Origin: an uncultured Mycoplasmatota bacterium
GTDB lineage: Bacteria > Bacillota_I > Bacilli_A > Mycoplasmatales > Mycoplasmoidaceae
Direction of reading: 5' to 3'
Assembly (NCBI GenBank): GCA_949527715.1
Contig: CATEWF010000001.1
Location: 9,883 to 73,882, forward strand
DNA: 64,000 nucleotides
The position numbers and the translations under genes were made by a program. The notes beneath the pieces are model-generated. The model did no database searches. It worked only from the letters and a program-made list of their open reading frames with translations, and was not told the origin of the DNA. How positions within the stretch are numbered: position 1 is the first letter of the stretch; every line of letters starts with the position of its first letter. Below, in pieces: positions 5,043 through 43,678 of the stretch.

Positions 5043-5074
5043 TTTGGTAGTGAATAAAAAATTCACTACCTTTG
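5043..5074 (+). promoter_or_regulatory. Bacteroidota-type promoter with embedded 10-bp hairpin
   Basis: TTTG 5043-5046, TAccTTTG 5067-5074, 20-nt spacer; GGTAGTGAAT(aaaaa)ATTCACTACC hairpin fills the spacer. Confidence 0.65.
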
Positions 5075-14037: not shown

Positions 14038-14069
14038 TTTGCATAGTTCAAAAAAAGTTCATATCTTTG
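14038..14069 (+). promoter_or_regulatory. Bacteroidota-type promoter
   Basis: TTAAC upstream, TTTG 14038-14041, TAtcTTTG 14062-14069, 20-nt spacer, GCAttATCAAA downstream. Confidence 0.7.
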
Positions 14070-14406: not shown

Positions 14407-15108
14407 ATGGAACATAGAACGTACACAAAAATCAACACGCTTTATAAGCGTTATTGTGAGGGTGAACTGAAGAATTGCATTATTATCGGTGATTATTCTG
14501 ATAAGGAAACAGAGTATTTGAAAGATAATAAGTGGCTTTGTTACGAAAAGATTGATGGTACAAATATGTCTTATTATTGGGATGGGCATAATATGGAAAT
14601 TCACGGAAAGAGTGAAAGCGCACAAATCCCTGCTCACCTACTTAATAAGATGAAAAGTATCATTACTTCTGAAATGTTGGCAGATGTATTTCCTATTAAG
14701 TACGATGAGAATGGAAATGAAATTCCTATGAATATTCGTATCTATGGAGAAGGATATGGCAAGAAAATTCAAAAGGGTGGTGGACGATATATTAGTAATG
14801 ATACTGATTTTATTGTATTTGATATTAATATTGATGGATGGTGGCTTTTGCCTGATGCGGTAGAAGAAATCGCTAAGAAACTTGGTTTGAAGGTTGTTCC
14901 GTTTATTGGTGAAATGACTATTGGAGAAGCCGAAGAATACGTTAAAAACGGATTTAAGTCTTGTATTTCAGAAGATAATACATTGATGGCAGAAGGACTT
15001 GTATGCCGTCCTAAAGTTCCTCTATTCAAGCGAAATGGTGAACGTATTATTGTAAAGATTAAGACTTGTGACTATGAAGCATTAAAGAAAAAAAGTGAAA
15101 AATTTTAA
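14407..15108 (+). CDS. ATP-dependent RNA ligase-like nucleotidyltransferase (233 aa)
   Basis: Ligase motifs in order: I EKIDGTN, III FIVFDI, IV EGLVCRP, V IVKIKT; size and N-terminus fit minimal Rnl2/Rnl5-type RNA ligases rather than DNA ligases. Confidence 0.7.
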   Translation: MEHRTYTKINTLYKRYCEGELKNCIIIGDYSDKETEYLKDNKWLCYEKIDGTNMSYYWDGHNMEIHGKSESAQIPAHLLNKMKSIITSEMLADVFPIKYDENGNEIPMNIRIYGEGYGKKIQKGGGRYISNDTDFIVFDINIDGWWLLPDAVEEIAKKLGLKVVPFIGEMTIGEAEEYVKNGFKSCISEDNTLMAEGLVCRPKVPLFKRNGERIIVKIKTCDYEALKKKSEKF

Positions 15109-20025: not shown

Positions 20026-20442
20026 ATGTTTAAAAATCCTAAGTTTATTAAAATATCTGAATTATACAATAAGATTATTAATGATTTTAATCTTGATGAT
20101 GTATATATTACAGATTTTTATCATCCGAGATGCGTTGAACGTGTTTTGTCGATACCTGTTAAAATTGAAGTTGAAACTTATGAAAGTAATGACGATGAAA
20201 TAATTTTTACTTGGGTTGAATCAGACCATTTTTATGGTACTTCTACGTTTCTTGCTGAATATAATAATGTTGATGATGCAATTTTAGATAGTATTATTGA
20301 TTCTTTGAATAACGCATATAACAATTATAAATTGATTAATAATGAAGTAAGTAATTTACTTAAAAATGTTGGTAAAAAGGAATACACTTCTAAAATTGTA
20401 ATGAATGTTCTAAACAAAAGATTTAGAGATGAAACCATCTAA
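20026..20442 (+). CDS. hypothetical protein (138 aa)
   Basis: ATG ORF, coding strand. Confidence 0.65.
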   Translation: MFKNPKFIKISELYNKIINDFNLDDVYITDFYHPRCVERVLSIPVKIEVETYESNDDEIIFTWVESDHFYGTSTFLAEYNNVDDAILDSIIDSLNNAYNNYKLINNEVSNLLKNVGKKEYTSKIVMNVLNKRFRDETI

Positions 20443-21133
20443 AAATAAAGTGCATTGCTATGATTGTGGCAGAAATAAAATGCTATTTGAAAGCGAGAAA
20501 AAGGCTTTGAATTTTATCAAGTTCAATAGTGAAAACATTGAAGAAGAAAATGGTATAAAGCCAATTAGAGCGTATTTCTGTCAATCTTGTTGTGGATGGC
20601 ATATAACAAGTAAACCTGAAAAAACATATAAGAATACACCAACTGAAAGGGTGATAGAACTTTATAATAAAGAAAAGGAGGCTAAAAAGAATGAAGCATT
20701 AAAAAAGAAAATGAATATATCTGAACGTATTGAAAAAGGTAAATTCACATATATAGGATTATTTCTTAATGAAGAACAAAGGGAACAATTAAAAGAAACA
20801 TTTTTTCATTTAATTCCACTTGAATCTAAATTATATCTTGACCATTGTACTATCTTACATAAAAATCAGATAGAAAACCCTAAAAGTCAAGAAATAATAG
20901 ATTATGTTTTGTCTTCTTTTTCCAAAGAGGAAGAAGTAAAGATTACTCATATAGGTATGAGTTATAAAACAATGGCTTTTAAGGTAGAAATTAATGTGCC
21001 TTGTGCAAATGATACACCACATATTACAATCTGCACTATTAATGATGGCAGACCTGTTGATAGTAATTATATTACTAATTGGAATAAATTAAGCAAACCA
21101 ATTAATTTGAAATTGGTATGGAAATTAATGTAA
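20429..21133 (+). CDS. zinc-ribbon / 2H-phosphoesterase (LigT/CPDase-like) fusion protein (234 aa)
   Basis: N-terminal CYDCG..(n)..CQSCCGWH ribbon; C-terminal half carries two H-x-T motifs (DHCTILH and PHITICT), the hallmark of 2H phosphoesterases. Confidence 0.5.
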   Translation: MKPSKNKVHCYDCGRNKMLFESEKKALNFIKFNSENIEEENGIKPIRAYFCQSCCGWHITSKPEKTYKNTPTERVIELYNKEKEAKKNEALKKKMNISERIEKGKFTYIGLFLNEEQREQLKETFFHLIPLESKLYLDHCTILHKNQIENPKSQEIIDYVLSSFSKEEEVKITHIGMSYKTMAFKVEINVPCANDTPHITICTINDGRPVDSNYITNWNKLSKPINLKLVWKLM

Positions 21134-24167: not shown

Positions 24168-25049
24168 ATGGCAGAATTTAAAGATAAATTATTGGAAAAG
24201 TATAAAGATAAACCATTTTCCGTTGGTGATGATGTTAAAATAAGCCGTAGTTTGTTTACTAACAGCAATAATGATATAGAAAAACTTGTCAATGTTAAAA
24301 TTGTAGATGTTTTAGACAATAACAAATACAAAGTACAACAAGTTAATAAGTATGAAACTTATGGCTTTTCAGATGTTGTTATTGTTGATAAAGATGATTT
24401 GCATAAAGACTTTTATACTATCGGTCATAACCCATTTAAATTTAATAGATATTTGAGAAAACTTGAGAGAGTTCAATTTGACCTTTCTGGAATTTTGTTA
24501 GATTTGAATATTTCTTCAAAAGTAGATCCTTATAAGAAACACGAATATGTAATTAAGGGTTTTACAATTCCTGAATATAATGACAATCCTTACATTTATG
24601 ATGAGAATGGTAATAAAGTTTATTATCAGCGAGATTATGTGTGGTCAGTAGAGGATGAACAACTTTTTATTGAAAGCATTTATAATGGACTTGATTGTGG
24701 TAAAATCGTTATTCGCAAGCACGATTGGAGTTATCTTGAAAAGTGTGTAGTTAATGGTAATACCGAAGGTTTGGCTTTCAAAGATATTGTTGATGGTAAA
24801 CAACGTATTCACACACTTAAAAGATTTTTGAATGACGAATTTAAGGACTTGCACGGATGCTATTATTCAGATTTATCAAAACAGGCAATGCACCAGTTTG
24901 ATAATAGTACAAGTTTAACATATCTTCGTCTTACAGAAGATGCCACAGATAAAGATGTCATTGAAACATTTCTTATGGTTAATTTTAGTGGTAAACCTAT
25001 GTCAAAAGAACATCTTGACTATGTACAGAAAATTAAGGTTAAAGGTTAA
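24168..25049 (+). CDS. DUF262 (ParB-like superfamily) domain protein (293 aa)
   Basis: C-terminal half has YQRDYVWSVEDEQLFIESI..(n)..IVDGKQRIHTL, the QR.yvW / DGqQR signature of DUF262. Confidence 0.55.
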   Translation: MAEFKDKLLEKYKDKPFSVGDDVKISRSLFTNSNNDIEKLVNVKIVDVLDNNKYKVQQVNKYETYGFSDVVIVDKDDLHKDFYTIGHNPFKFNRYLRKLERVQFDLSGILLDLNISSKVDPYKKHEYVIKGFTIPEYNDNPYIYDENGNKVYYQRDYVWSVEDEQLFIESIYNGLDCGKIVIRKHDWSYLEKCVVNGNTEGLAFKDIVDGKQRIHTLKRFLNDEFKDLHGCYYSDLSKQAMHQFDNSTSLTYLRLTEDATDKDVIETFLMVNFSGKPMSKEHLDYVQKIKVKG

Positions 25050-28076: not shown

Positions 28077-28997
28077 ATGAATTTATTTGAAAGTTATTTA
28101 AAAAGACTTGTTAATGAAACGGTTAAAGAATTTTTAAGTGAGAAACGTTTAATTACATTTGATAACAGAGTATATCCTAAATTTGGATGGTGTGTTATCT
28201 TAGCAGGCGGTGGTGGAAGTGGAAAAGGTTATATAAATTCACATAATTTACCGATTGATGGTAAAGTCATTAATGTGGATGACTTCAAAAAATTATATGC
28301 AAGATTAAAAAAGGTAGAATATAATTCGCACAATCCAGAAGATGTCGCTCGTTTACATAAAATGGTATCACAAGCAGATATAAAAGGTATGTATACTGAT
28401 AACATATTTAATCCTGAGGCACATAATACTGAAAGATTACCTAATGTTATCTTTGATATGACAGGTAGAGACCCAGAGCATAATGTTACATATATTGCCA
28501 GATATGCAAAAGAAATGGGTTATAAGACTTGTGTAGTATGGGCTGTTGCTAACAGACATGAAGCATTATTAAGAAATCTAAGAAGAAGTCGAACAGTTCC
28601 TGATAATATCATTCACTCTATACATAATAATCTTGCAACTAATATGCCACCATTTTTAGAAAGTCAGTTAGCAGTCGATTATTTAGATGATGCGTGGATT
28701 ATATTCAGTTCAACTGATAATCTTACTCAATCAGATTTAAGTGGTGATGAAGCAAAAGATATGGCAGTTCATTTAGATAAAAGTAACAATGGATTTATCA
28801 TTTCAAATGATACTTTTGCACGAATAAATAAGTATGTTGGTAAACTTGAGAAAAATCCTTTACACCCAGAAACTTATTTAAGCAGTAAAGAAATTGCTGA
28901 TAAATATGGTACACCACAATTTGATAAAAACGGTAATCAAAATGGCTATGAATTTGATAGAAGCCAATTCAATAAAGATAGTAATTTTTATCGTTAA
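28077..28997 (+). CDS. P-loop kinase, zeta-toxin/AAA_33-like (306 aa)
   Basis: Walker A VILAGGGGSGKGY and Walker-B-like VIFDMTGRD; the family includes small-molecule and polynucleotide kinases. Confidence 0.5.
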   Translation: MNLFESYLKRLVNETVKEFLSEKRLITFDNRVYPKFGWCVILAGGGGSGKGYINSHNLPIDGKVINVDDFKKLYARLKKVEYNSHNPEDVARLHKMVSQADIKGMYTDNIFNPEAHNTERLPNVIFDMTGRDPEHNVTYIARYAKEMGYKTCVVWAVANRHEALLRNLRRSRTVPDNIIHSIHNNLATNMPPFLESQLAVDYLDDAWIIFSSTDNLTQSDLSGDEAKDMAVHLDKSNNGFIISNDTFARINKYVGKLEKNPLHPETYLSSKEIADKYGTPQFDKNGNQNGYEFDRSQFNKDSNFYR

Positions 28998-30162: not shown

Positions 30163-30194
30163 TTTGTGAGGTACGATAAAAAATCGTACCTTTG
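30163..30194 (+). promoter_or_regulatory. Bacteroidota-type promoter with embedded hairpin (Sir2 operon)
   Basis: TTTG 30163-30166, TAccTTTG 30187-30194, 20-nt spacer; AGGTACGAT/ATCGTACCT stem in the spacer. Confidence 0.65.
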
Positions 30195-30223: not shown

Positions 30224-30934
30224 ATGAGTAATAAAAAGAAAATAGTCGTATTAACAGGTGCTGGTATATCAAAAGAATCTGGTATTCCAACATTTCGTGA
30301 TGCTGTTGATGGATTGTGGGAAAATTATGATATAAATGATGTTTGTACGGCTGAAGCGATAAAACGAAATCCAGAATTGGTTCATAATTTTTATAATGAA
30401 CTAAGAGCGAAGTATAAAGATGCTAAACCAAATGAAGCACATAAATTGCTTTATGAATTGGAAAAAGATTATGATGTTGAAATTATTACACAGAATGTGG
30501 ATAATTTACATGAACAAGCAGGCTCTACCAAAGTTCTTCACTTACATGGCGAGATAATGAAATGTCGTGATACTGGTAATACTAATTACATTTTTGATAT
30601 ACCTTGTGATGAAGAAGGTAATTACAATACATATCATGGTATGAAAATAGATGGACATACTGTACGTCCTCATATTGTATTTTTTCACGAAGATGTACCA
30701 AATATAACAAAGGCTGCTTCTTTGATGAAAAAAGCTGATATTTGTGTAGTAATAGGTAGTTCAATGCAAGTTTATCCTGCTGCTGGTTTAATTGACTATG
30801 TTAATGTTGGTAATCCAATATATTATATTGACCCATTTCCATCAATTGACCAAGTATCATATCCTGATGTTCAAGTAATTGATGAAGTAGCAACGAAAGG
30901 AATGGAAATATTAACTGAAAAATTAAAGAAATAA
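30224..30934 (+). CDS. cobB: NAD-dependent protein deacylase, Sir2/CobB family (236 aa)
   Basis: Canonical sirtuin motifs GAGISKESGIPTFRD, QNVDNLHEQAG and catalytic His in HLHGE; only two Cys where the usual four-Cys zinc module sits. Confidence 0.85.
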   Translation: MSNKKKIVVLTGAGISKESGIPTFRDAVDGLWENYDINDVCTAEAIKRNPELVHNFYNELRAKYKDAKPNEAHKLLYELEKDYDVEIITQNVDNLHEQAGSTKVLHLHGEIMKCRDTGNTNYIFDIPCDEEGNYNTYHGMKIDGHTVRPHIVFFHEDVPNITKAASLMKKADICVVIGSSMQVYPAAGLIDYVNVGNPIYYIDPFPSIDQVSYPDVQVIDEVATKGMEILTEKLKK

Positions 30935-30946
30935 CAAGATAAAAGA

Positions 30947-31267
30947 ATGAAGAATTGGTCATATTATAAAAAAGGTTGGTCTATATCGTGGTATAATTTT
31001 AAAAACGAATTAGATGATTCATATGCTAAAACATTTAATGAAGCCTATAAAAATAACCCAGATAAATATTTTAAGAAAGTATTTCATTTATTGAGAAATG
31101 AATATGGCATAGAGTATGTCCACATGTGGAATACTTCTCATTTATTGTGGCAAACACCAAAAAATATATATTGGTTTAAGTTTAGAGTTTCTGACAGATT
31201 TGATAAGAAAGGAAAATGGAAGTTTAAAGTTATGAAAACCACTAATGACCATGTAAGTTGTGGTTAA
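30947..31267 (+). CDS. hypothetical protein (106 aa)
   Basis: ATG ORF between the Sir2 and GmrSD-like genes. Confidence 0.6.
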   Translation: MKNWSYYKKGWSISWYNFKNELDDSYAKTFNEAYKNNPDKYFKKVFHLLRNEYGIEYVHMWNTSHLLWQTPKNIYWFKFRVSDRFDKKGKWKFKVMKTTNDHVSCG

Positions 31268-31302
31268 AATATAATATAACATTTTAAATAAAAAGAATAT
31301 AA

Positions 31303-33021
31303 ATGAAAGACAGTAGAACATTTCACGAAATTTTTGGTATTTATGTAGAAAAACCGTATCAATTGGGTGTATTACGGGCTAAACAAAGAAATTATGAATG
31401 GCGCAGAATTGAGATATTGCAATTATTAAATGATATTTCAGAATTAGCAGAAACACATGATCCTCTTGGATATTTTGTAAATACGGTTGCAATTTTTGAA
31501 AATGTAAAAGAAAATGTTGAAGAAATAATTGATGGTAATCAAAGATTGACAACAACATTATTAATATATCTTACAATAAAAAATTTTATATTAAATAATA
31601 ATTTGGGAAAACAGTATGAGTTTATTCTTAATGATATAGATAGAAGAATTTATCGGCACTATGATAAACGTGTAATTTTAAAACCAATGCCTGTTGATAA
31701 GCCTATTTTTGAGGATGTATTGAATAATTGTCATGAAAAGATTCACAGCAACAATTATGAATATAAGACAACAAGAATTGCTAAAGCCTATAAGTTCATT
31801 TATGAATATTTTACAAATTGTTGTATTGAAAAGGGTTATAATTATATAAATTCATTTTATATGGGTGGGCTTTATAATCTTCGTACCTTGATATTAGAAC
31901 CTCAGAGTGAGAAGGAAGCCGCTAATTTGTTTCAGAAATCTAATACTTGTGGTTTAGAACTGAATAACAATACAAAAATTACAGTTTTTGTAAATCAGAT
32001 TCTTGCGGACTATGTTGATGATAATGATTTACCATTAGAAAAGTATGTAGAGTATAATACAAAATTTGCTAACGCTGTGGATAGTGTAAAAGATTTTAAA
32101 AAATCTTTTGTCTATTTTTTATATTATTTAAATAACACTTATGTTACATATACAAGAATTTATGATTCATTTTATAATTATTTGAATAATGTCCTTGTTT
32201 ATGGTAAACAAAAATCAGATAAATTTAGTAATATATTCGAATTAATTGATAAATTCTGTTATTTTACCAACTTCATTTATTCGTTACAAAACAATTATTT
32301 TGAAAATGAAACTAAAAAGATAAACTATTTGTTAAGTTTGTGTGGTACTTGTGTCTATACTGAAATCGCTATAATAGATATGTTTAGTGATAAATATGAT
32401 TATGCCTTTAGTAACACAGAAAAATATAATATTATTGAAATGTTAATGATAATAACATTTCGTAGTAAATATCTCGTTAGTGGATTAAGTCATCCAGAGA
32501 AAAGAATGGCTTGCTTGATTAACAAATGTTTGGAAATTAACAGTAAAACTAATGAAAGAATAGATAAAATTTTTAAAGAATATATTATAAATAGTGGTCT
32601 TTTAGAAGAAATGGGATATGTTTCTGATGAAACTTTTGTAAGAGGTATTATTTATAAACCAATCTATAATAAACGTATTACTTCAGTTTTAAAATATGTT
32701 TTAACTAAATTAAATAATTATTTTGGTGATGAACAAATTATTTTTGGAACCAATATAGATAATACTATTGAACATGTAATTCCACAAATAAATAATCAAA
32801 ATGAAAAATTGTTACATACAATAGGTAATTTGACTGTTTTATCAAGAAGTAATAATTCTTCATTAAAAAATGAAACATATGTAAATAAAAAATCAACATT
32901 AAATAAAAGTTCAATTCATTTAAACCAGTACTTTATAGATAAAGACGATTTTAATTGGACTGATGTTGAAGAACGTAGCAAATATTTAGCACCAATAATG
33001 TGTGAAATTTTTAAAATATAA
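31303..33021 (+). CDS. GmrSD-like DUF262/DUF1524 protein, candidate type IV (modification-dependent) endonuclease (572 aa)
   Basis: N-terminal DUF262 signature (..YEWRR.., IIDGNQRLTT); C-terminal DUF1524 His-Me signature (IEHVIPQ..(n)..IGNLTVLSRSNNSSLKN). Confidence 0.75.
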   Translation: MKDSRTFHEIFGIYVEKPYQLGVLRAKQRNYEWRRIEILQLLNDISELAETHDPLGYFVNTVAIFENVKENVEEIIDGNQRLTTTLLIYLTIKNFILNNNLGKQYEFILNDIDRRIYRHYDKRVILKPMPVDKPIFEDVLNNCHEKIHSNNYEYKTTRIAKAYKFIYEYFTNCCIEKGYNYINSFYMGGLYNLRTLILEPQSEKEAANLFQKSNTCGLELNNNTKITVFVNQILADYVDDNDLPLEKYVEYNTKFANAVDSVKDFKKSFVYFLYYLNNTYVTYTRIYDSFYNYLNNVLVYGKQKSDKFSNIFELIDKFCYFTNFIYSLQNNYFENETKKINYLLSLCGTCVYTEIAIIDMFSDKYDYAFSNTEKYNIIEMLMIITFRSKYLVSGLSHPEKRMACLINKCLEINSKTNERIDKIFKEYIINSGLLEEMGYVSDETFVRGIIYKPIYNKRITSVLKYVLTKLNNYFGDEQIIFGTNIDNTIEHVIPQINNQNEKLLHTIGNLTVLSRSNNSSLKNETYVNKKSTLNKSSIHLNQYFIDKDDFNWTDVEERSKYLAPIMCEIFKI

Positions 33022-33034
33022 TATAGGTTTGTTT

Positions 33035-33652
33035 ATGAAAATAGGATTATATTTTGGTAGTTTTAACCCGATACACGAAGGACATATCTTTGTGGTAAAG
33101 AAAGCATTGGAAACAGGAATAGATAAGTTATTCCTTGTTGTTTCACCCCAATCTCCATTCAAACCATTATCTGAACTTGCTTCTTTTAAGGACAGATTGG
33201 AAATGGCAAAAATTGCTATAAAATCACATAATATTGAAGATAAAGTTGAAGCCGTAGATTGGGAAGAATATATGTATCCATCATATACGGCACATACATT
33301 ACAGAAGTCTGTACCAATGTTACAAGAAAATGATACAACCATTTTTATGGGGTTAGATAATTTCCTTACAATAGATAAATGGAAAGAACCTAATTACATT
33401 CTTGAAAATTATGGAATACATATTATTCCAAGAGGTGATGATTTTGAAGAACGATTAATTACCGATAAGATAAAACAATTGAGGGAAAATGTTACTCCTA
33501 ACCTTAAAAGTGTTACATTTTCTATAATTGAACATACAATTAACATTTCTGCAACAGAGATTAGAAATAGAGTCAGAAATAATGAAAAAATTGAAAATAT
33601 TATAGACTGTAATGTATTAAACTACATCATTAATAATGATTTATATAAATAA
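33035..33652 (+). CDS. nadD: nicotinate/nicotinamide mononucleotide adenylyltransferase, NadD family (205 aa)
   Basis: GSFNPIHEGH (HxGH), PSYTAHTL and ISATEIR motifs; ATG at 33035 preferred over the GTG at 33002. Confidence 0.85.
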   Translation: MKIGLYFGSFNPIHEGHIFVVKKALETGIDKLFLVVSPQSPFKPLSELASFKDRLEMAKIAIKSHNIEDKVEAVDWEEYMYPSYTAHTLQKSVPMLQENDTTIFMGLDNFLTIDKWKEPNYILENYGIHIIPRGDDFEERLITDKIKQLRENVTPNLKSVTFSIIEHTINISATEIRNRVRNNEKIENIIDCNVLNYIINNDLYK

Positions 33653-36894: not shown

Positions 36895-36926
36895 TTTGTT
36901 TATATTAAAGAAAAATCGTACCTTTG
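36895..36926 (+). promoter_or_regulatory. Bacteroidota-type promoter (Thg1-like / RNA ligase unit)
   Basis: TTTAAC upstream, TTTG 36895-36898, TAccTTTG 36919-36926, 20-nt spacer. Confidence 0.7.
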
Positions 36927-36954
36927 CATTGTTAAATATAAAAATCATAAGTAT

Positions 36955-37779
36955 ATGAAATTCGATAGTTTAAAAGAAAAATGTGAGTATTATCGTGGTC
37001 TTAACGATTCAAGGCTTGTACCAAATTCATATGTGATGGTAATGCTTGATGGCAGGTCGTTTTCAAAAAACATTAAAAATCATTTTAAGAAACCTTTTGA
37101 TGAAGATTTTATTGAAATGATGAATGAAACGGCTAAATATGTTTGTGCAAATGTACAAGGTTGTAAGATGGCATATACACAAAGTGATGAAATTAGTCTA
37201 ATTATTACTGATTTTGAAGATATTAATACAGATTCATTCTTTGGTTTACGTAATAATAAACTACATTCAATCATTGCTTCCCTTGCTACTTCAAAATTTA
37301 ATCAACTTATGATAGAGTATGCCTTTGAAAATGCAGCAATTGTTAAAGCAGAATTTAATCTTAAAAATATTAAGAATATAATTAATGCAACTAAACTTTA
37401 TCAGTTTGATTGTAAATGTTGGAATGTACCTTCTTGGAATGATACATTTGCTTGGTTGCTATATCGTCAAATTGATTGTATTCGTAATTCAAAACAGCAA
37501 GCAGCACAGTCTTATTTATCACATAAAGAATTAGTAGGTAATGAATGTGATAAACAAATTGAAATGCTTAAAGATGCACATGGTATTGATTGGTATACAG
37601 AATATAATGATGGTATGAAATACGGACGTTTTATTTATCGTGATAAGGAACATTTTGTATCTGATAAATATGGCGAATACGAAAGAACTGTATGGAATAG
37701 TCATTATGCATTTCCTTTAATGGAAGACGGTGGGAAAGAGCGTTTTAATGAACTTAATTTAATACCAAAGTTGTCATGA
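36955..37779 (+). CDS. Thg1-like protein (tRNA-His guanylyltransferase family 3'-5' nucleotidyl polymerase, 274 aa)
   Basis: VMVMLDGRSFSK..FKKPFDEDF..(n)..AYTQSDEISLI matches the conserved Thg1/TLP catalytic core (R.DG..F...f.kP.D ... qSDEiS). Confidence 0.8.
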   Translation: MKFDSLKEKCEYYRGLNDSRLVPNSYVMVMLDGRSFSKNIKNHFKKPFDEDFIEMMNETAKYVCANVQGCKMAYTQSDEISLIITDFEDINTDSFFGLRNNKLHSIIASLATSKFNQLMIEYAFENAAIVKAEFNLKNIKNIINATKLYQFDCKCWNVPSWNDTFAWLLYRQIDCIRNSKQQAAQSYLSHKELVGNECDKQIEMLKDAHGIDWYTEYNDGMKYGRFIYRDKEHFVSDKYGEYERTVWNSHYAFPLMEDGGKERFNELNLIPKLS

Positions 37780-37973
37780 AAGTAATTATAACAGAAGTTA
37801 AAATAGGATGGTTCAAGAATGAATATTCTAAAATTAGAGAGTTTGATGAATGGAAATATGAATATCTTCCTGTAATAGATGATGTATTGTTTATTAATGA
37901 TGAACAATATAAAGTTCTTCAAAGAAGTTTTCATTGTATAGATATAGTACAAATTTATGTAAGAAAGGTCTAA
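37776..37973 (+). CDS. hypothetical protein (65 aa)
   Basis: ATGA overlap with the Thg1-like stop codon. Confidence 0.5.
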   Translation: MKVIITEVKIGWFKNEYSKIREFDEWKYEYLPVIDDVLFINDEQYKVLQRSFHCIDIVQIYVRKV

Positions 37974-37979
37974 ATTATT

Positions 37980-38657
37980 ATGAAAAGATACGATTCAATA
38001 GATAATGTAAGATATGACAAAACCCTTATGGGTGAAGAAGTTTGGGCTTTTAACAAACTTGATGGACAAAATTTTGGTGTTAAGTATTCACCTAAAAATA
38101 AAGAGTTTACAGATTTTACATCAAGAAATTGTAATGTCGATGAAACACATTCTCAATTTGGTGATGCTGTAAAGTATTTTAAAGAACATTATGCTGATAG
38201 ACTGAAAGAAATTATTAATAGTAATTCTGGTAAAAATCAAATTTTCAAGGGAGTTGAAGAAATAATGTTTTTCTTTGAGTGGTATGGTGAAAACTCATTT
38301 GCTGGTTTTCACACCGAAGGTGATGAACTTAAACTTGCTTTGATTGATGTCTTTATGAAAAAGAAGGGTTATATAGAGCCAAAAGAATTTTATGAATTAT
38401 TTTGTAATGATCCAATAATTCTAACTCCAGAAGTAATTTATAAAGGCAAATTAACACAAGAGTTTATTAATTCTATTAATGAAAATGATTGGACACAGGA
38501 TGGCTGTCAATACCCTAATGTAAAAGAAGGTGTAGTTATTAGACGTTCTACTAGAATGAAAGGTCAAAGAATGCCTAAAACGAAAACAAAGACTAAATGG
38601 TGGATAAATAAATTACACGAGAACTTTACTGAGGAAGAATGTAAGAAATTGGAGTAA
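37980..38657 (+). CDS. ATP-dependent RNA ligase-like nucleotidyltransferase (225 aa)
   Basis: Motif I NKLDGQN, motif IIIa-like FFFEWYGENSFAG, motif IV EGVVIRR, Lys-rich motif V KTKTKTK. Confidence 0.7.
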   Translation: MKRYDSIDNVRYDKTLMGEEVWAFNKLDGQNFGVKYSPKNKEFTDFTSRNCNVDETHSQFGDAVKYFKEHYADRLKEIINSNSGKNQIFKGVEEIMFFFEWYGENSFAGFHTEGDELKLALIDVFMKKKGYIEPKEFYELFCNDPIILTPEVIYKGKLTQEFINSINENDWTQDGCQYPNVKEGVVIRRSTRMKGQRMPKTKTKTKWWINKLHENFTEEECKKLE

Positions 38658-38685: not shown

Positions 38686-38961
38686 ATGGAAGTTAAATCT
38701 AAAAGAGCCGAAGGTGTTTTGAAAGAAATACTTGATAAAATTGATGAAGTAGAACTTACAAGAACCCGTAAACGTATGATGTTAGCAGTAAAGATTAGTG
38801 AAGCAATGATTAAATGTGGCTATAGTAAAGAACAATTCGCTCATCTTATGAACAAGGATGTATCTATTATTTCAGATTGGTTATCTGGCGATGAAAATTT
38901 TACGATTAACACTTTAATGGATATCGAGAATATTCTTGGAATAAAACTTCTTAATGTATAA
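38686..38961 (+). CDS. XRE-family helix-turn-helix protein (91 aa)
   Basis: ..YSKEQFAHLMNKDVSIISDWLSG..NFTINTLMDIENILG.. is a typical HTH_3 pattern. Confidence 0.65.
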   Translation: MEVKSKRAEGVLKEILDKIDEVELTRTRKRMMLAVKISEAMIKCGYSKEQFAHLMNKDVSIISDWLSGDENFTINTLMDIENILGIKLLNV

Positions 38962-39388
38962 TTTTTTTATTATGGAATATATTGTAGAAAAAGAGTTTCT
39001 ATCTAAATTAGGTAGAATGAATGGAAAAGTACGAGAAGAAATTGTTAAAAAATTTCCTGAAATATACAATGATGAGGCTAAATTTTGCTATATTGGTCAA
39101 ATAATTTATTCAAAGAAAAAAGAATCCTTTTATACTATTGTAAAAGTAAAAAATGAAATAAAGTTTCTTAATATTACTAATAGTAGTTTTTGGAAGAATA
39201 CTATAAAGTTAGATTACGATAAATATCCGACATATACTCCTGGTAGTGATGATGATAAGATTATAACTAAAGGTATGTTCCGTGATTTGTTAGGAGAATT
39301 TTCTTATAGATTTGAAGAATTTATACCAATTAGAAATAATGATATGCTTCGTTTAAGAAATAGCCTTATGACTGATAAAAATTGTTAA
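38954..39388 (+). CDS. hypothetical protein (144 aa; alternative ATG at 38972)
   Basis: ATG ORF overlapping the previous stop. Confidence 0.6.
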   Translation: MYNFFIMEYIVEKEFLSKLGRMNGKVREEIVKKFPEIYNDEAKFCYIGQIIYSKKKESFYTIVKVKNEIKFLNITNSSFWKNTIKLDYDKYPTYTPGSDDDKIITKGMFRDLLGEFSYRFEEFIPIRNNDMLRLRNSLMTDKNC

Positions 39389-39393
39389 GAATA

Positions 39394-41052
39394 ATGAGTC
39401 GAATTAGTATTACAGATAGCAAAGGATTTCGTTATACAGTTGATGATACGAAATCTATTGGTAGTGGTGGAGAAGCCTGCATTTATTCGTTAAATAATGG
39501 TAATGTAGTTAAACTTTATCATAACATTTCAGATGCAATTTCTCCTAAGAAAATAAATGAATTAACTGTACTTGATGACACTTTATTTGTAAAACCATTA
39601 ATGCCAGTACATGGTGATAAGAATGGCTATATAATGAAAGAATTAGATTTAAGCAAATATTACCCTATCTATTCGTTATATAGTTCATCATTTGTACTTA
39701 AAAATGGTTTTCCACGAGATTATAAGAAAGTTATATCTGAAAAGTTAGTTAAAGCGGTTAAAAATGCCCACGACAATAATATTGTTATTGGAGATTTAAA
39801 TCCATTCAATATTATGGTGAATAATCAATTGGATGTTAAGTTTATTGATGTTGATTCATATCAGACAATATCATATAAACATAATGATAAATTATTAGAA
39901 GATATACGTGATTATTACTATAATGGAAAGGTATCAAAGGAAAGTGATTATTTTTCGTTATCAATCATAGTATTTTGTTTATTCACTGGTATTCATCCAT
40001 ATAAAGGAATACATAATGTATATAGGGATAAACTAAAAGATAGGGAAATAAATAACATATCACTTCTTAATGAAAAAGAAATCAATAATATAAAAGTACC
40101 TAAATTTTATGTCCCGATTGATAATTCATTAAAGGATATGTTCTATCAATTGTATCAATTGAATAAACGTTTCCTTATCAATATGGAAGGAAAAACAATC
40201 GCTGATGTTAAGTTCGATGCCATTGTTGCTTCAAATGAATTGCTCATTCGCAGTCTATTTAAAGGTAATATTTTAAATGTATGCTGTTCTAACAAGTTTA
40301 TGGCAATATTCAATGATAAAGATACTCAACTTTATTCATTGGAAAGCAAAGGTATAATTGTAAGAATTGGAAATATTGACAAAAAATATCCTTTAATATT
40401 AACAGATAAGAATATATTCACAATATATAATAATCATTTATATCTATGTAATGTTAAAGAACAAAAATTTACTGCATTTAAATCATTAATGTTCAATAAT
40501 GTTTATCTAATAAAACAATATGAAAATATATTGGTAGTGATTACAAAAGATGATAAACGTTATACAATTTATCTTGATGAGATATTTGCCAATAACATAA
40601 GATATACAGTAGATGATGTTTATCATAAGACGTTTACCAAAGTGAACGGTTTGATACAACGGATAAATAACAGTTCTACAAATATATTTTATAATTCAAA
40701 TGGTAAGTTGATGCAGAATATGATACCTGAAAAGGTAGTAGATATTATACAAAATCGTAATACTGGTATTTATACTGTTATTGAGAATAATAATGTAATT
40801 CATAAACTATTCTATATTAATCAGTATGGAAACATGAAGACTAAATCATTGACTGAAATGTACCCATTTACATCTAATGATAAGTTTGTAATTCTATATT
40901 GTGATGATAAATTACATTTCCTTGATAAAGAAACCTTAAATGAAGTAGTATCTTTTGAAGCCAATGGATTGGATAATTGTCAAATAATGTCAACACAATC
41001 TGGCATTGTAACATTTAATAATAGTGAATGTCAGATTTTAAATACTAAATAA
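39394..41052 (+). CDS. eukaryotic-type Ser/Thr protein kinase with large C-terminal repeat-like domain (552 aa)
   Basis: Gly-loop GSGGEACIY, Lys in VVKLY, catalytic loop IVIGDLNPFNIMV, DFG-like FIDVDSY, ESDYFSLSI; ATG at 39394 preferred over the TTG at 39382. Confidence 0.7.
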   Translation: MSRISITDSKGFRYTVDDTKSIGSGGEACIYSLNNGNVVKLYHNISDAISPKKINELTVLDDTLFVKPLMPVHGDKNGYIMKELDLSKYYPIYSLYSSSFVLKNGFPRDYKKVISEKLVKAVKNAHDNNIVIGDLNPFNIMVNNQLDVKFIDVDSYQTISYKHNDKLLEDIRDYYYNGKVSKESDYFSLSIIVFCLFTGIHPYKGIHNVYRDKLKDREINNISLLNEKEINNIKVPKFYVPIDNSLKDMFYQLYQLNKRFLINMEGKTIADVKFDAIVASNELLIRSLFKGNILNVCCSNKFMAIFNDKDTQLYSLESKGIIVRIGNIDKKYPLILTDKNIFTIYNNHLYLCNVKEQKFTAFKSLMFNNVYLIKQYENILVVITKDDKRYTIYLDEIFANNIRYTVDDVYHKTFTKVNGLIQRINNSSTNIFYNSNGKLMQNMIPEKVVDIIQNRNTGIYTVIENNNVIHKLFYINQYGNMKTKSLTEMYPFTSNDKFVILYCDDKLHFLDKETLNEVVSFEANGLDNCQIMSTQSGIVTFNNSECQILNTK

Positions 41053-41135
41053 ATTTTGTTTTATCAAAAATAAAACGTATATTTGAAAAGTAATAAAAAA
41101 AAAATATTGTTTAACAGAATAAAAATTTTTGGATA

Positions 41136-42895: not shown

Positions 42896-43678
42896 ATGAC
42901 AAACGCAATGTTGATTGTAGACATGCAGAATGATTTTGTCTGCACAAATGGCACACTTTCAGTTCCAGGTGCCGAAGAAGATGCAAAAAGAACAGCTGAT
43001 TTTATTAAAAAAAATGCTCGAAACATTTATCATATTTCAGCAACTCTTGATAGTCATCACCCTATTCATATAGCAAATGCTATTTTTTGGAAAGATGCAA
43101 ATGGTAATCATCCTTCACCATTTACTACCATTACTGCACAGGATATTAAGGATGGAAAATGGCAAACAGCATTTAATCCTCAGTGGGCTGTACATTATGT
43201 TGAGGAACTTGAGAAAAAAGGGAAAATTCTTACTATATGGACTGATCATTGCATTATTGGAAGTGAAGGATGGGCTTTGTATAAAGATATTGCTAATGCA
43301 TTGATCGATTGGGAAAAGGAAACTTCACGTCCTTATCATCTTGAGTTTAAGGGAAGCAATTGGTATACTGAACATTATAGTATCTTTAAGGGTGAAGTAG
43401 AAGTTCCTAATTGTCCTGAGACACAGTTGAATCAGAATCTTATTAATATTCTTAATAAATTTGACCGAATATTTCTTTTGGGTGAAGCATCCTCAGTATG
43501 TGTAAAAAATTCACTTAACGACCTTAACAACTATGCTCCTGACCTTGTAAGCAAGTTGGTTATTCTCGAAGACTGTATGTCACCTATCGGTCCTTGGGAT
43601 ATTAATACTGATGCCGTTTATCAGAAAGCAGTATCTTTGGGTGCAAAGATTATGAAATCAACAGATGTTACATTTTAA
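42896..43678 (+). CDS. pncA: isochorismatase-family cysteine hydrolase, probable nicotinamidase (260 aa)
   Basis: MLIVDMQNDF (catalytic Asp), His cluster LDSHHPIH, and nucleophile Cys in GEASSVCV. Confidence 0.6.
   Translation: MTNAMLIVDMQNDFVCTNGTLSVPGAEEDAKRTADFIKKNARNIYHISATLDSHHPIHIANAIFWKDANGNHPSPFTTITAQDIKDGKWQTAFNPQWAVHYVEELEKKGKILTIWTDHCIIGSEGWALYKDIANALIDWEKETSRPYHLEFKGSNWYTEHYSIFKGEVEVPNCPETQLNQNLINILNKFDRIFLLGEASSVCVKNSLNDLNNYAPDLVSKLVILEDCMSPIGPWDINTDAVYQKAVSLGAKIMKSTDVTF

Follow-up and report, generated by a model that had tools for sequence, protein, structure and literature searches.

The locus at 36895..38657 raises the question of whether a Thg1-like protein (TLP) and an RNA ligase, whose genes share a strand and a predicted operon and are separated by ~200 bp, act together in RNA repair or serve separate ends. 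We addressed this question within the window, i.e., the whole 64,000-nucleotide stretch of DNA that was analysed, which derives from a phage related to the Lak megaphages of Prevotella; this phage occurs in SRR4116674, SRR23105297, and ERZ781220. When the locus was searched at the nucleotide level against GenBank phages, no match was obtained, and relatives were found at the protein level only; a literature search on megaphages and guanylyltransferase likewise found nothing.

Identity of the encoded enzymes

All ORFs named in the first-pass annotation were present in the window at the coordinates given below, and profile and fold searches bore out the gene identities it had proposed. The first gene (36955..37779, + strand) encodes a 274-aa protein, a predicted templated 3'-5' RNA nucleotidyltransferase, that matched Pfam PF04446 (E=2.8e-28; score 98.9 bits, cutoff 29.2) and PHROG 4717, "tRNA-His guanylyltransferase" (E=4.6e-55), with no match in NCBIfam. 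Its translation contains VMLDGRSF, KKPFD, and TQSDEIS. Across 26 homologues, D32, R34, P47, F48, and S77-D78-E79 were invariant and G33 and D49 nearly so. The best solved structure by sequence was 4KGK, a "Thg1-like uncharacterized protein" (E=3.2e-24), which we take to be the TLP of Bacillus thuringiensis (PDB 4KGK/4KGM), and K46 lies within a KPFD motif that aligns with KPFD of that protein. In human Thg1, D29, D76, and E77 are the palm-domain metal carboxylates and K44 and S75 the activation residues; the window protein has the metal-carboxylate (D32, D78, E79) and activation (K46, S77) residues of the Thg1/TLP superfamily. More specifically as to subclass, the 4KGK protein was matched at E=3e-24, ahead of 7cv1 and 3otb, both entered as "tRNA(His) guanylyltransferase" (~2e-7), and of 3wbz (9e-7), and the window protein has RQIDCIRNSKQQ at the position where eukaryotic Thg1 has HINNLYN, the anticodon-recognition motif of eukaryote-type Thg1 (PMC6471195). 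As HINNLYN is lacking and a bacterial TLP is closest, the protein is, judged by its sequence, of the bacterial TLP type and not a eukaryote-type, tRNA-His-specific Thg1. It shares with the 4KGK/4KGM protein the DG...KPFD...QSDEIS signature, the absence of HINNLYN, and a similar size (274 versus 245 aa), and differs in having ~20 extra residues between ~122 and 148 (a stretch that is variable in the Lak clade), in being phage-encoded, and in that its activity is predicted only.

The TLP gene is followed by a 65-aa ORF (orf65; 37776..37973, +), the ATG of which overlaps the Thg1 stop codon (ATGA), so that translational coupling of orf65 to the Thg1 gene is likely. This ORF has a syntenic counterpart of 67 aa (48% identity) in the related loci L018 and L019, in which the overlap is conserved, and had no family match in Pfam, PHROG, or NCBIfam. 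A role for orf65 as a partner conserved with the TLP or with the ligase was rejected, as its homologues are confined to the window's own lineage; the small ORFs that follow TLP genes elsewhere show no relation to it, and ligase homologues elsewhere are preceded by other genes.

The third gene (37980..38657, +) encodes a 225-aa ATP-dependent RNA ligase, Rnl2/REL1-like and consisting of a nucleotidyltransferase (NTase) domain only. It matched PF09414 (E=5.9e-12; motif I, NKLDGQN) and carries motifs I (K26-L-D-G-Q-N), III, IIIa, IV, and V; across 31 ligase sequences, including the paralogue described below, K26/D28/G29/N31, E94, G103, D123, E183-G184, and K202/K204 were invariant and E100 nearly so. 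NCBIfam gave no match, and no solved structure was matched by sequence. Its AF2 model (pLDDT 92.4) has the adenylyltransferase fold: by Foldseek it matched Trypanosoma brucei REL1 (8e-9) and T4 Rnl2 (8.5e-8), with TM-scores of 0.62-0.66 when normalised to the query, as well as T4 Rnl1, NgrRnl, and viral "RNA ligase 2" models. We found no appended domain of either kind sought (Rnl2 C-terminal or Rnl5 N-terminal OB), the NTase domain filling all 225 residues, and the protein is therefore a minimal variant rather than a canonical Rnl2 or Rnl5. In its fold (nucleotidyltransferase) and in motifs I, III, IIIa, IV, and V it agrees with T4 Rnl2 and REL1, whereas it has no C-terminal domain and is only 15-17% identical to them. 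The C-terminal domain of T4 Rnl2 is required for adenylate transfer to the nick, and REL1, which likewise has no OB domain in cis, receives an OB fold in trans; REL1, T4 Rnl2, and NgrRnl are all sealers of nicks in duplex RNA.

Three further genes had been grouped with this locus. A second NTase-only, Rnl2-like RNA ligase (14407..15108, +; PF09414, E=8.4e-20; T4 Rnl2, E=2e-6) has its own promoter at 14038-14069 and, at 22% identity to the 225-aa ligase, is its distant paralogue. The product of 20429..21133 (+) joins a Cys-rich N-terminal segment (CxxC...CxxCC, Zn-ribbon-like by eye) to a short domain that matched tRNA_lig_CPD (E=1.5e-6; residues 143-217; 28.3 bits against a cutoff of 23) and has two HxT motifs, DHCTI and PHITI (H139-C-T and H198-I-T), and by these motifs it is a predicted 2H phosphoesterase (CPDase-like). 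The gene at 28077..28997 (+), 8 kb upstream of the TLP operon, encodes the sole P-loop kinase candidate, a member of the zeta-toxin/AvrRxo1/PNK clade (Walker A, GGGGSGKG; Zeta_toxin, E=6.5e-7), which matched no solved structure by sequence; a fold search ranked zeta toxins and AvrRxo1 above polynucleotide kinases (PNKs), with ambiguous TM-scores of about 0.4. The protein can therefore not be assigned as a polynucleotide kinase, and the TLP-ligase operon itself contains no 5'-kinase or 3'-phosphatase. The five genes are spread over 24 kb in separate transcription units, which we counted against grouping them as one set.

Predicted transcription unit and gene order in relatives

A Bacteroidota-type promoter motif (36895..36926, +; -33 TTTG and -7 TAccTTTG) lies 28 nt 5' of the TLP start codon. 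When the window was searched for the pattern TTTG-N17-23-TAnnTTTG, we counted 35 matches versus 7.4 expected, a number attained in 0/100 shuffles; nearly all matches are intergenic and 5' of + strand genes, and one copy sits exactly at 36895-36926. A scan for the sigma-70 consensus was uninformative (38 found versus 44.7 expected); the motif relevant here is the Bacteroidota one. The three genes that follow the ligase gene are tightly packed or overlapping, namely, those for a 91-aa HTH_3 (Cro/C1-type) protein (38686..38961, +), for a 144-aa product (orf144; 38954..39388, +, overlapping the HTH stop codon), and for a protein-kinase-like protein (39394..41052, +) with Pkinase/RIO1 matches at residues ~110-260 and a long C-terminal region beyond. 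As these genes are so closely spaced, no terminator is predicted after 38657 in this stretch, and the next intergenic promoter motif (41055..41085, +) lies 5' of the SSB gene, the predicted unit probably runs past the ligase gene to 41052, the protein-kinase-like gene being its last. A weaker internal promoter-like match (39286-39314) could also drive the latter gene. Accordingly, of the claim that the promoter drives the TLP gene, the 65-aa ORF, and the ligase gene, the motif is real and cotranscription is plausible, while the implied end of the unit at 38657 is probably wrong.

The arrangement of the first three genes (an ATGA overlap followed by a 6-nt spacer) is conserved in L018 and L019, as is orf144 after the ligase gene, whereas the HTH gene is missing from that syntenic block. 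The block Thg1-small ORF-ligase-orf144-kinase-SSB is found in a lineage with TLP and ligase identities of 74% and 87%, respectively. In the complete Lak-A1 and Lak-B2 genomes, in contrast, 43-44 kb separate the TLP and 225-type ligase genes, which lie on opposite strands, and the ligase gene is absent beside Thg1 in L014 and L016 (two of the closest lineages, at 70% and 74% identity), with a C10 peptidase or unknown genes at its position in L016 and L014. Three ligase-homologue loci have no TLP gene within 6 kb. The region 3' of Thg1 varies between close lineages and contains mobile genes (TnpB/IS605, LAGLIDADG). The adjacency of TLP and ligase genes seen here is a lineage-specific rearrangement in a variable accessory-gene region rather than a conserved feature.

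Phage TLP neighborhoods and competing readings

A wider link between TLP and RNA-repair genes is supported, in that phage TLP genes lie near such genes more often than background density predicts. In 98 dereplicated phage loci, ligase density fell from 4.7 per 100 kb at distances of up to 1 kb from the TLP gene to 0.95 at 5-10 kb (~5-fold), and 13 ligase genes lay within 2.5 kb versus 4.5 expected (Poisson P=7e-4, an optimistic value because the loci are phylogenetically related). By sequence, these ligases form three groups, and their domain architectures are of two kinds (NTase-only 225-type and 233-type; OB+NTase Rnl5-like); they stand up- or downstream of the TLP gene, and at least five arrangements occur. 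When near neighbors were surveyed with Pfam in an unbiased way, RNA_ligase ranked first upstream (7/138); the 145 downstream neighbors were highly varied and included 115 Pfam families, and AAA_33 kinases accounted for 5/145 downstream ORFs (82 TLP loci). Both surveys combined gave RNA_ligase 11, PHA02142-OB 6, AAA_33 5, Tpt1 2, and RlaP 2. RlaP was present within 10 kb in 9/72 TLP loci, and a ligase and/or RlaP in 29/72, with neither in the other 43/72. In addition, a PolyA_pol+HD protein that is probably a CCA-adding enzyme accompanies the TLP of Vibrio phage 1.170.O, and mycobacteriophage Hannaconda has a polynucleotide kinase gene ~0.9 kb downstream of its TLP gene. Such repair-family neighbors recur across unrelated phage groups (gut, freshwater, and sediment samples, Vibrio phages, and mycobacteriophages).

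We think it somewhat likelier right than wrong that the locus encodes a cotranscribed pair of RNA-end repair enzymes, which would belong to a wider set of tRNA repair genes that Lak-like megaphages carry in loose clusters; the window contains 0 tRNA genes, which we counted against a tRNA-repair pair. A rival account, in which independent accessory genes were shuffled together in a hypervariable early region and share no biology, or in which the substrates of the TLP are RNAs other than tRNA (e.g., phage transcripts or small RNAs), would fit the variability and mobile genes 3' of Thg1 and the diversity of downstream families, and at least one TLP of Dictyostelium reportedly acts on non-tRNA RNA. 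We nevertheless judge it improbable, given the fall in ligase density with distance from the TLP gene and the recurrence of repair-family neighbors in unrelated phages. Maintenance of tRNA-His, with the TLP adding or restoring G-1 opposite C73 on phage or host tRNA-His and the ligase unrelated to that job, is the function under which many phage records annotate the TLP homologue; bacterial-type TLPs are able to add G-1 opposite C73, and a tRNA-His gene in L177, with T rather than G at -1 and C at 73, would need posttranscriptional G-1 addition. A tRNA-His role has also been proposed for phage CBB (PMC5259590). This function is unlikely here, as the TLP lacks the anticodon-reading HINNLYN (PMC6471195) and the recurrent TLP neighbors are ligases, RlaP, PNK-like kinases, and Tpt1 rather than tRNA-His or HisRS genes. 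Linkage to tRNA-His was rejected as well: the window has no tRNA genes, tRNA-His genes are not enriched near TLP genes (4/86 tRNAs), and 3/4 of those within 10 kb encode G-1, as in bacteria.

Alternatively, the two enzymes could form an obligatory coupled pathway, in which the TLP fills a gap in a duplex RNA stem 3'-5' and the NTase-only ligase seals the remaining nick, possibly with orf65 as its partner in trans. The nick-sealing habit of the closest structural relatives of the ligase and the contiguity of the three genes, conserved in L018/L019, speak for such coupling, and some described immune tRNases remove nucleotides or entire arms, damage that ligation alone does not mend (PMC12776372; bioRxiv 10.64898/2026.07.10.737580). 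If true, the scheme would mirror, in RNA (a tRNA stem), the repair of gaps in DNA, and megaphages could reverse damage by nucleotide-excising nucleases that beats simple religation. This pathway is nonetheless distinctly unlikely: TLP products bear a 5'-triphosphate, whereas the ligase requires a 5'-monophosphate (PMC6471195), the two genes lie far apart in the reference Lak genomes, and orf65 is restricted to one lineage.

Proposed mechanism and known repair systems

For the pair of RNA-end repair enzymes that we favor, the motif and the gene packing suggest that the promoter would give one mRNA for the TLP, orf65, the ligase, the HTH protein, orf144, and the kinase-like protein. The TLP would bind structured RNA with a recessed 5' strand, most likely tRNA, activate the 5'-phosphate with ATP or GTP (or use a 5'-triphosphate), and then extend that 5' end in the 3'-to-5' direction, pairing each added nucleotide with the 3' strand, until the stem is whole again. 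Bacterial and archaeal TLPs are established to work in this way (PMC3061083, PMC4820378), and we ascribe such chemistry to the window protein from its conserved catalytic residues. The ligase, by its motifs and fold, would self-adenylylate at K26 and seal 3'-OH/5'-PO4 breaks and, as it has no appended domain, may require a partner in trans or a pre-adenylylated end. Most likely, the lesions that the TLP and the ligase repair, caused by host or competitor tRNases, would differ from or complement one another, and the two enzymes probably do not form an obligatory pathway of two steps.

The lesion that the TLP would repair is a 5'-truncated acceptor stem, and no immune nuclease leaving such a stem was found in the literature examined, in which antiphage tRNases cut anticodon arms, T-/D-loops, or the acceptor-stem 3' strand or tail. 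The proposal of a counter-defense against RNases that damage the tRNA 5' acceptor end is not supported by the antiphage tRNases described there, which spare the 5' strand. Editing of mis-encoded phage tRNA 5' ends, as in amoebal mitochondria, was unsupported: acceptor-stem mismatches at positions 1-3 were present in 0/75 unique phage tRNA genes from the collected TLP loci, as called by ARAGORN, which may miss mismatched tRNAs. The recurrence of phage TLP genes beside genes for RNA ligases, RlaP, PNK-like kinases, and Tpt1 points to damage repair in biological conflict as their natural context, and suggests that some host or competitor nuclease, not yet described, makes 5'-recessed tRNA ends. 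If so, phage answers to tRNA-targeting immunity would gain the rebuilding of 5' nucleotides beside religation (as in T4) and the replacement of tRNAs. Since Lak phages are, to our knowledge, uncultivated, practical value is limited; TLP homologues in cultivable Bacillus, Mycobacterium, Vibrio, and Caulobacter phages, e.g., Bacillus phage TsarBomba, Omegavirus mycobacteriophages, Vibrio phage 1.170.O, and Caulobacter phage CcrSC, are better test beds.

This kind of RNA-repair kit has already been predicted, and the Lak-like locus is a further predicted case of it. Thg1 with PNK, Macro, and RNA ligase was put forward as RNA repair, including phage Thg1 as a possible counter-defense, in 2010 (PMC2904730) and 2021 (PMC7824862), and TLP homologues occur in 155 GenBank phage records, many already annotated as tRNA-His guanylyltransferase; the set is therefore not the unusual one it had been called. 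A 2019 review of the TLP family (PMC6471195) mentions no viruses, phages, RNA ligase, or polynucleotide kinase. In the bacterial Thg1-PNK(-Macro, -RNA ligase) neighborhoods and the sporadic jumbo-phage Thg1 genes of the two earlier studies, repair was likewise inferred from the adjacency of Thg1 and ligase genes, whereas Lak megaphages, an NTase-only ligase, and co-localization with RlaP do not feature in them; moreover, PNK is the most persistent bacterial Thg1 partner (PMC2904730, PMC7824862), and no PNK gene is present in the TLP operon. Like anticodon-loop repair by T4 Pnkp and Rnl1, the locus would let a phage counter tRNA damage with the help of an ATP-dependent RNA ligase; in contrast to T4, the window has neither a bifunctional Pnkp nor an Rnl1-type ligase (no match to either among the window ORFs examined) and would instead use a nucleotide-restoring polymerase. 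Repair by RlaP and RNA ligase (PF10127; PMC12776372) is similar in that lost nucleotides are replaced before ligation, and a ligase of the same family adjoins RlaP in the relatives L009 and L101, while the window has no RlaP homologue. The two differ in the end that is rebuilt: RlaP adds 1-2 untemplated nucleotides at 3' ends, whereas the TLP would add templated nucleotides at 5' ends.

The Thg1-like protein and its predicted transcription unit

The window is AT-rich phage DNA, and a nucleotide search against GenBank phages returned no match to it. All ORFs named in the first-pass annotation are present at the coordinates assigned there. In profile searches, the Thg1-like protein (TLP; 36955-37779, + strand) matched the Pfam family Thg1 (E = 2.8e-28) and PHROG 4717 (E = 4.6e-55). 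The nearest solved structure in a sequence search was 4KGK, a Thg1-like protein (E = 3.2e-24), with structures titled tRNA(His) guanylyltransferase matching more weakly (only ~1e-7). D32 and S77-D78-E79 are invariant across 26 homologues, and K46 lies within the conserved KPFD motif. Because the protein carries RQIDCIRNSKQQ where HINNLYN, the eukaryote-specific anticodon-reading motif of Thg1 (PMC6471195), would stand, we regard it as a bacterial-type TLP. It is 54-56% identical to proteins of the Prevotella megaphages Lak-A1, Lak-B, and Lak-C; 1850 database proteins (more distant phages included) matched it at E ≤ 1e-20, and contigs of several public assemblies carry the gene in identical form amid the same neighbours. 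Our analysis adds that TLPs, as judged by sequence similarity, are widespread among Lak-like megaphages.

The Bacteroidota promoter pattern TTTG-N17-23-TAnnTTTG was observed 35 times in the window (7.4 expected), nearly always directly 5' of genes. More specifically, it precedes nearly all + strand gene clusters up to 42.8 kb (e.g., at 5043, 10252, 21640, and 30163), gene polarity being on the - strand after ~48 kb, and one copy (36895-36926) lies ahead of the TLP gene. In a few copies, the -33 and -7 elements enclose a perfect inverted repeat of 9-10 bp (GGTAGTGAAT...ATTCACTACC) that looks like an operator; the Thg1 promoter retains the right half only (ATCGTACC), and the same half occurs in the promoter at 30163.

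The 65-aa ORF (37776-37973, +) overlaps the Thg1 stop codon with its start (ATGA) and ends 6 nt upstream of the ligase start (37980-38657, +). It is 48% identical to the syntenic 67-aa ORF of a related lineage, in which the overlap is kept, and is probably a genuine gene that evolves fast. Downstream of the ligase are an HTH gene (38686-38961), a 144-aa ORF (38954-39388), and a protein-kinase-like gene, joined by a 28-nt junction and then two overlapping ones. No terminator was predicted from the ligase up to the kinase-like gene; a weaker internal promoter motif lies at 39286, and the next intergenic promoter (41055) precedes the SSB gene. Because of these tight or overlapping junctions, the lack of a predicted terminator, and the position of that next promoter, the transcription unit probably comprises six genes. 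Thus, the promoter motif that the first-pass annotation placed ahead of TLP, 65-aa ORF, and ligase is upheld, but the proposed three-gene extent is likely too short. The kinase-like protein (39394-41052, 552 aa) has a long C-terminal region and belongs to the same predicted operon as the TLP; its gene is kept after the ligase in the syntenic lineage L018/L019, and in Vibrio phage 1.170.O, too, a protein kinase gene lies three genes 5' of the TLP.

The adjacent ligase and other genes in the window

The ligase matched PF09414 in a profile search, and a sequence search against solved structures gave no match. Its AlphaFold model (pLDDT 92.4, from an alignment of 31 sequences) matched T. brucei REL1 (8e-9), T4 Rnl2, T4 Rnl1, and the Naegleria nick-sealing ligase, as well as models of viral 'RNA ligase 2'. 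The nucleotidyltransferase (NTase) motifs are conserved (K26 in KLDGQN, E94, E100, G103, D123, E183-G184, and K202/K204), and the adenylyltransferase domain alone fills the 225 residues. A further addition of our analysis is that this 225-type ligase, from its predicted domain content and homologues, is a minimal NTase-only family nearly restricted to huge phages.

Three other genes, scattered across 24 kb in different transcription units, had been linked to repair. The second ligase (14407-15108) is Rnl2-like and distantly paralogous to the 225-aa one. The 2H protein (20429-21133) combines a Cys-rich N-terminus (a Zn-ribbon, read by eye) with a short 2H domain bearing two HxT motifs and a tRNA-ligase-CPDase match barely over threshold. 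The P-loop protein (28077-28997; model pLDDT 88) is structurally closest to zeta toxins and the NAD kinase AvrRxo1, with the Clostridium thermocellum and T4 polynucleotide kinases ranking lower and TM scores of ~0.4 throughout, and its gene adjoins SIR2- and NMNAT-like genes.

NAD+-/defence-related genes lie around the Thg1 operon (30224-33652, 42896-43678, and 24168-25049, the last encoding a second GmrSD_N protein). A cluster directly upstream of the operon encodes SIR2, an NMNAT-like cytidylyltransferase, and a 572-aa GmrSD_N/C-like protein, which contig L011, identical apart from this, carries as two pieces of 136 and 442 aa; an isochorismatase-like gene lies downstream.

Ligases and other repair genes near phage TLPs

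The comparison drew on 179 loci taken from GenBank phages, IMG/VR, metagenomes, and Logan/ENA assemblies; a TLP gene was present in 177 sources (window included), and clustering of TLPs at 90% identity left 98 loci with usable flanks. Across these, ligase density pointed to a functional association: ligases per 100 kb numbered 4.7 at <1 kb from the TLP, 1.4-2.3 at 1-5 kb, and 0.95 at 5-10 kb, with 13 ligases within 2.5 kb versus 4.5 expected (P = 7e-4, a value that takes loci as unrelated). By sequence the ligases form three groups; by domain architecture they divide into NTase-only (225-type and 233-type) and OB+NTase (Rnl5-like, ~500 aa). Since they occur upstream or downstream of the TLP in at least five arrangements, we argue that TLP and ligase were juxtaposed repeatedly.

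Likewise, RNA_ligase ranked first upstream when 283 near-neighbour ORFs were scanned against Pfam in an unbiased way, and PHA02142-OB, AAA_33 kinases, Tpt1, and RlaP were also recovered. In 9 of 72 loci, RlaP, which adds 1-2 nucleotides onto damaged RNA 3' ends (PMC12776372), is no more than 10 kb from the TLP; 43 of the 72 have neither a ligase nor RlaP at that distance, which speaks against tight coupling. Two Lak-like contigs encode RlaP (PF10127) and a 225-aa ligase homologue (L009, 4468-5832 and 6001-6681; L101, 6764-7993 and 8465-9142). In L009, RlaP lies 35 bp upstream of the TLP-ligase-type gene; in L101, one gene intervenes, and RlaP, ligase, and TLP together fit within 4 kb. No RlaP homologue was found in the window. 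That RlaP, the 3'-end counterpart, occurs in the TLP neighbourhood is also added here. In addition, a polynucleotide kinase lies ~0.9 kb from the TLP in mycobacteriophage Hannaconda, and a PolyA_pol+HD protein, probably a CCA-adding enzyme, ~1.3 kb from that of Vibrio phage 1.170.O.

In several environmental non-Lak phage contigs, an FtsH-like AAA+/Peptidase_M41 protein follows the TLP gene (L082, 10831-12765; L085, 12247-14187; L165, 12298-14223), in L085 and L165 after a conserved ~455-aa protein; in L154, genes for a microbial PARG and an NAD-dependent DNA ligase come after the TLP.

Synteny also argues against tight coupling. The full block (TLP, small ORF, ligase, 144-aa ORF, kinase, and SSB) was found in the window's lineage and one other only, whose TLP and ligase are 74% and 87% identical to the window's. 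In two other close lineages, L014 and L016, a C10 peptidase or unknown genes follow the TLP, and TnpB/IS605-family and LAGLIDADG genes flank the region (L014, 16595-16825; L016, 10231-11361 and 12210-14126), consistent with a hotspot of accessory-gene turnover in close relatives. Orthologues of the TLP and the 225-type ligase lie on opposite strands in the complete genomes of Lak-A1 and Lak-B2, separated by 43-44 kb, although an Rnl5-like ligase is found ~2.6 kb from the TLP there.

A proposed repair role and its alternatives

Bacterial-type TLPs restore 5'-truncated tRNAs in vitro by templated 3'-5' addition. An RNA-repair role is, on balance, the best reading of the TLP-ligase locus; an obligatory pathway formed by the two enzymes is unlikely. 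Were the TLP instead to add G-1 to tRNA-His, this activity would be mostly unneeded and is unreflected in the neighbourhoods: G-1 is encoded, in bacterial fashion, in 3 of 4 phage tRNA-His genes near TLP genes, although the fourth, a tRNA-His(GUG) gene at 20178-20250 of contig L177 and less than 10 kb from a TLP gene, carries T rather than G at -1 together with C73 and would require posttranscriptional G-1 addition. A role in 5'-editing of mismatched tRNAs is unsupported, as none of 75 phage tRNAs has a mismatch at positions 1-3.

Regarding the damage that such repair would address, the antiphage tRNases reported of late either act on the acceptor stem, nicking or trimming its 3' strand or tail, or target other loops or arms, and these papers describe none that leaves a 5'-recessed TLP substrate (PMC12916289, PMC12851939, PMC13462974, bioRxiv 10.64898/2026.07.10.737580), which is both a weakness of the repair model and its most interesting implication. 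The phage is uncultivated and literature precedent exists; the TLP-ligase pair is a solid starting point for an enzymological question that is still open.

The first-pass annotation had presented Thg1 and ligase as an unusual repair set; the gene identities, and repair as the best reading, stand, but the concept had been put forward before. In 2010, Anantharaman, Iyer, and Aravind described Thg1 genes neighboured by polynucleotide kinase, Macro, and RNA ligase and viewed the Thg1 of phage 201phi2-1 as a possible repair answer to host defences (PMC2904730), and Thg1 was later included among jumbo-phage RNA-repair enzymes (Iyer et al. 2021, PMC7824862). The first-pass idea thus rediscovers a prediction already in print.
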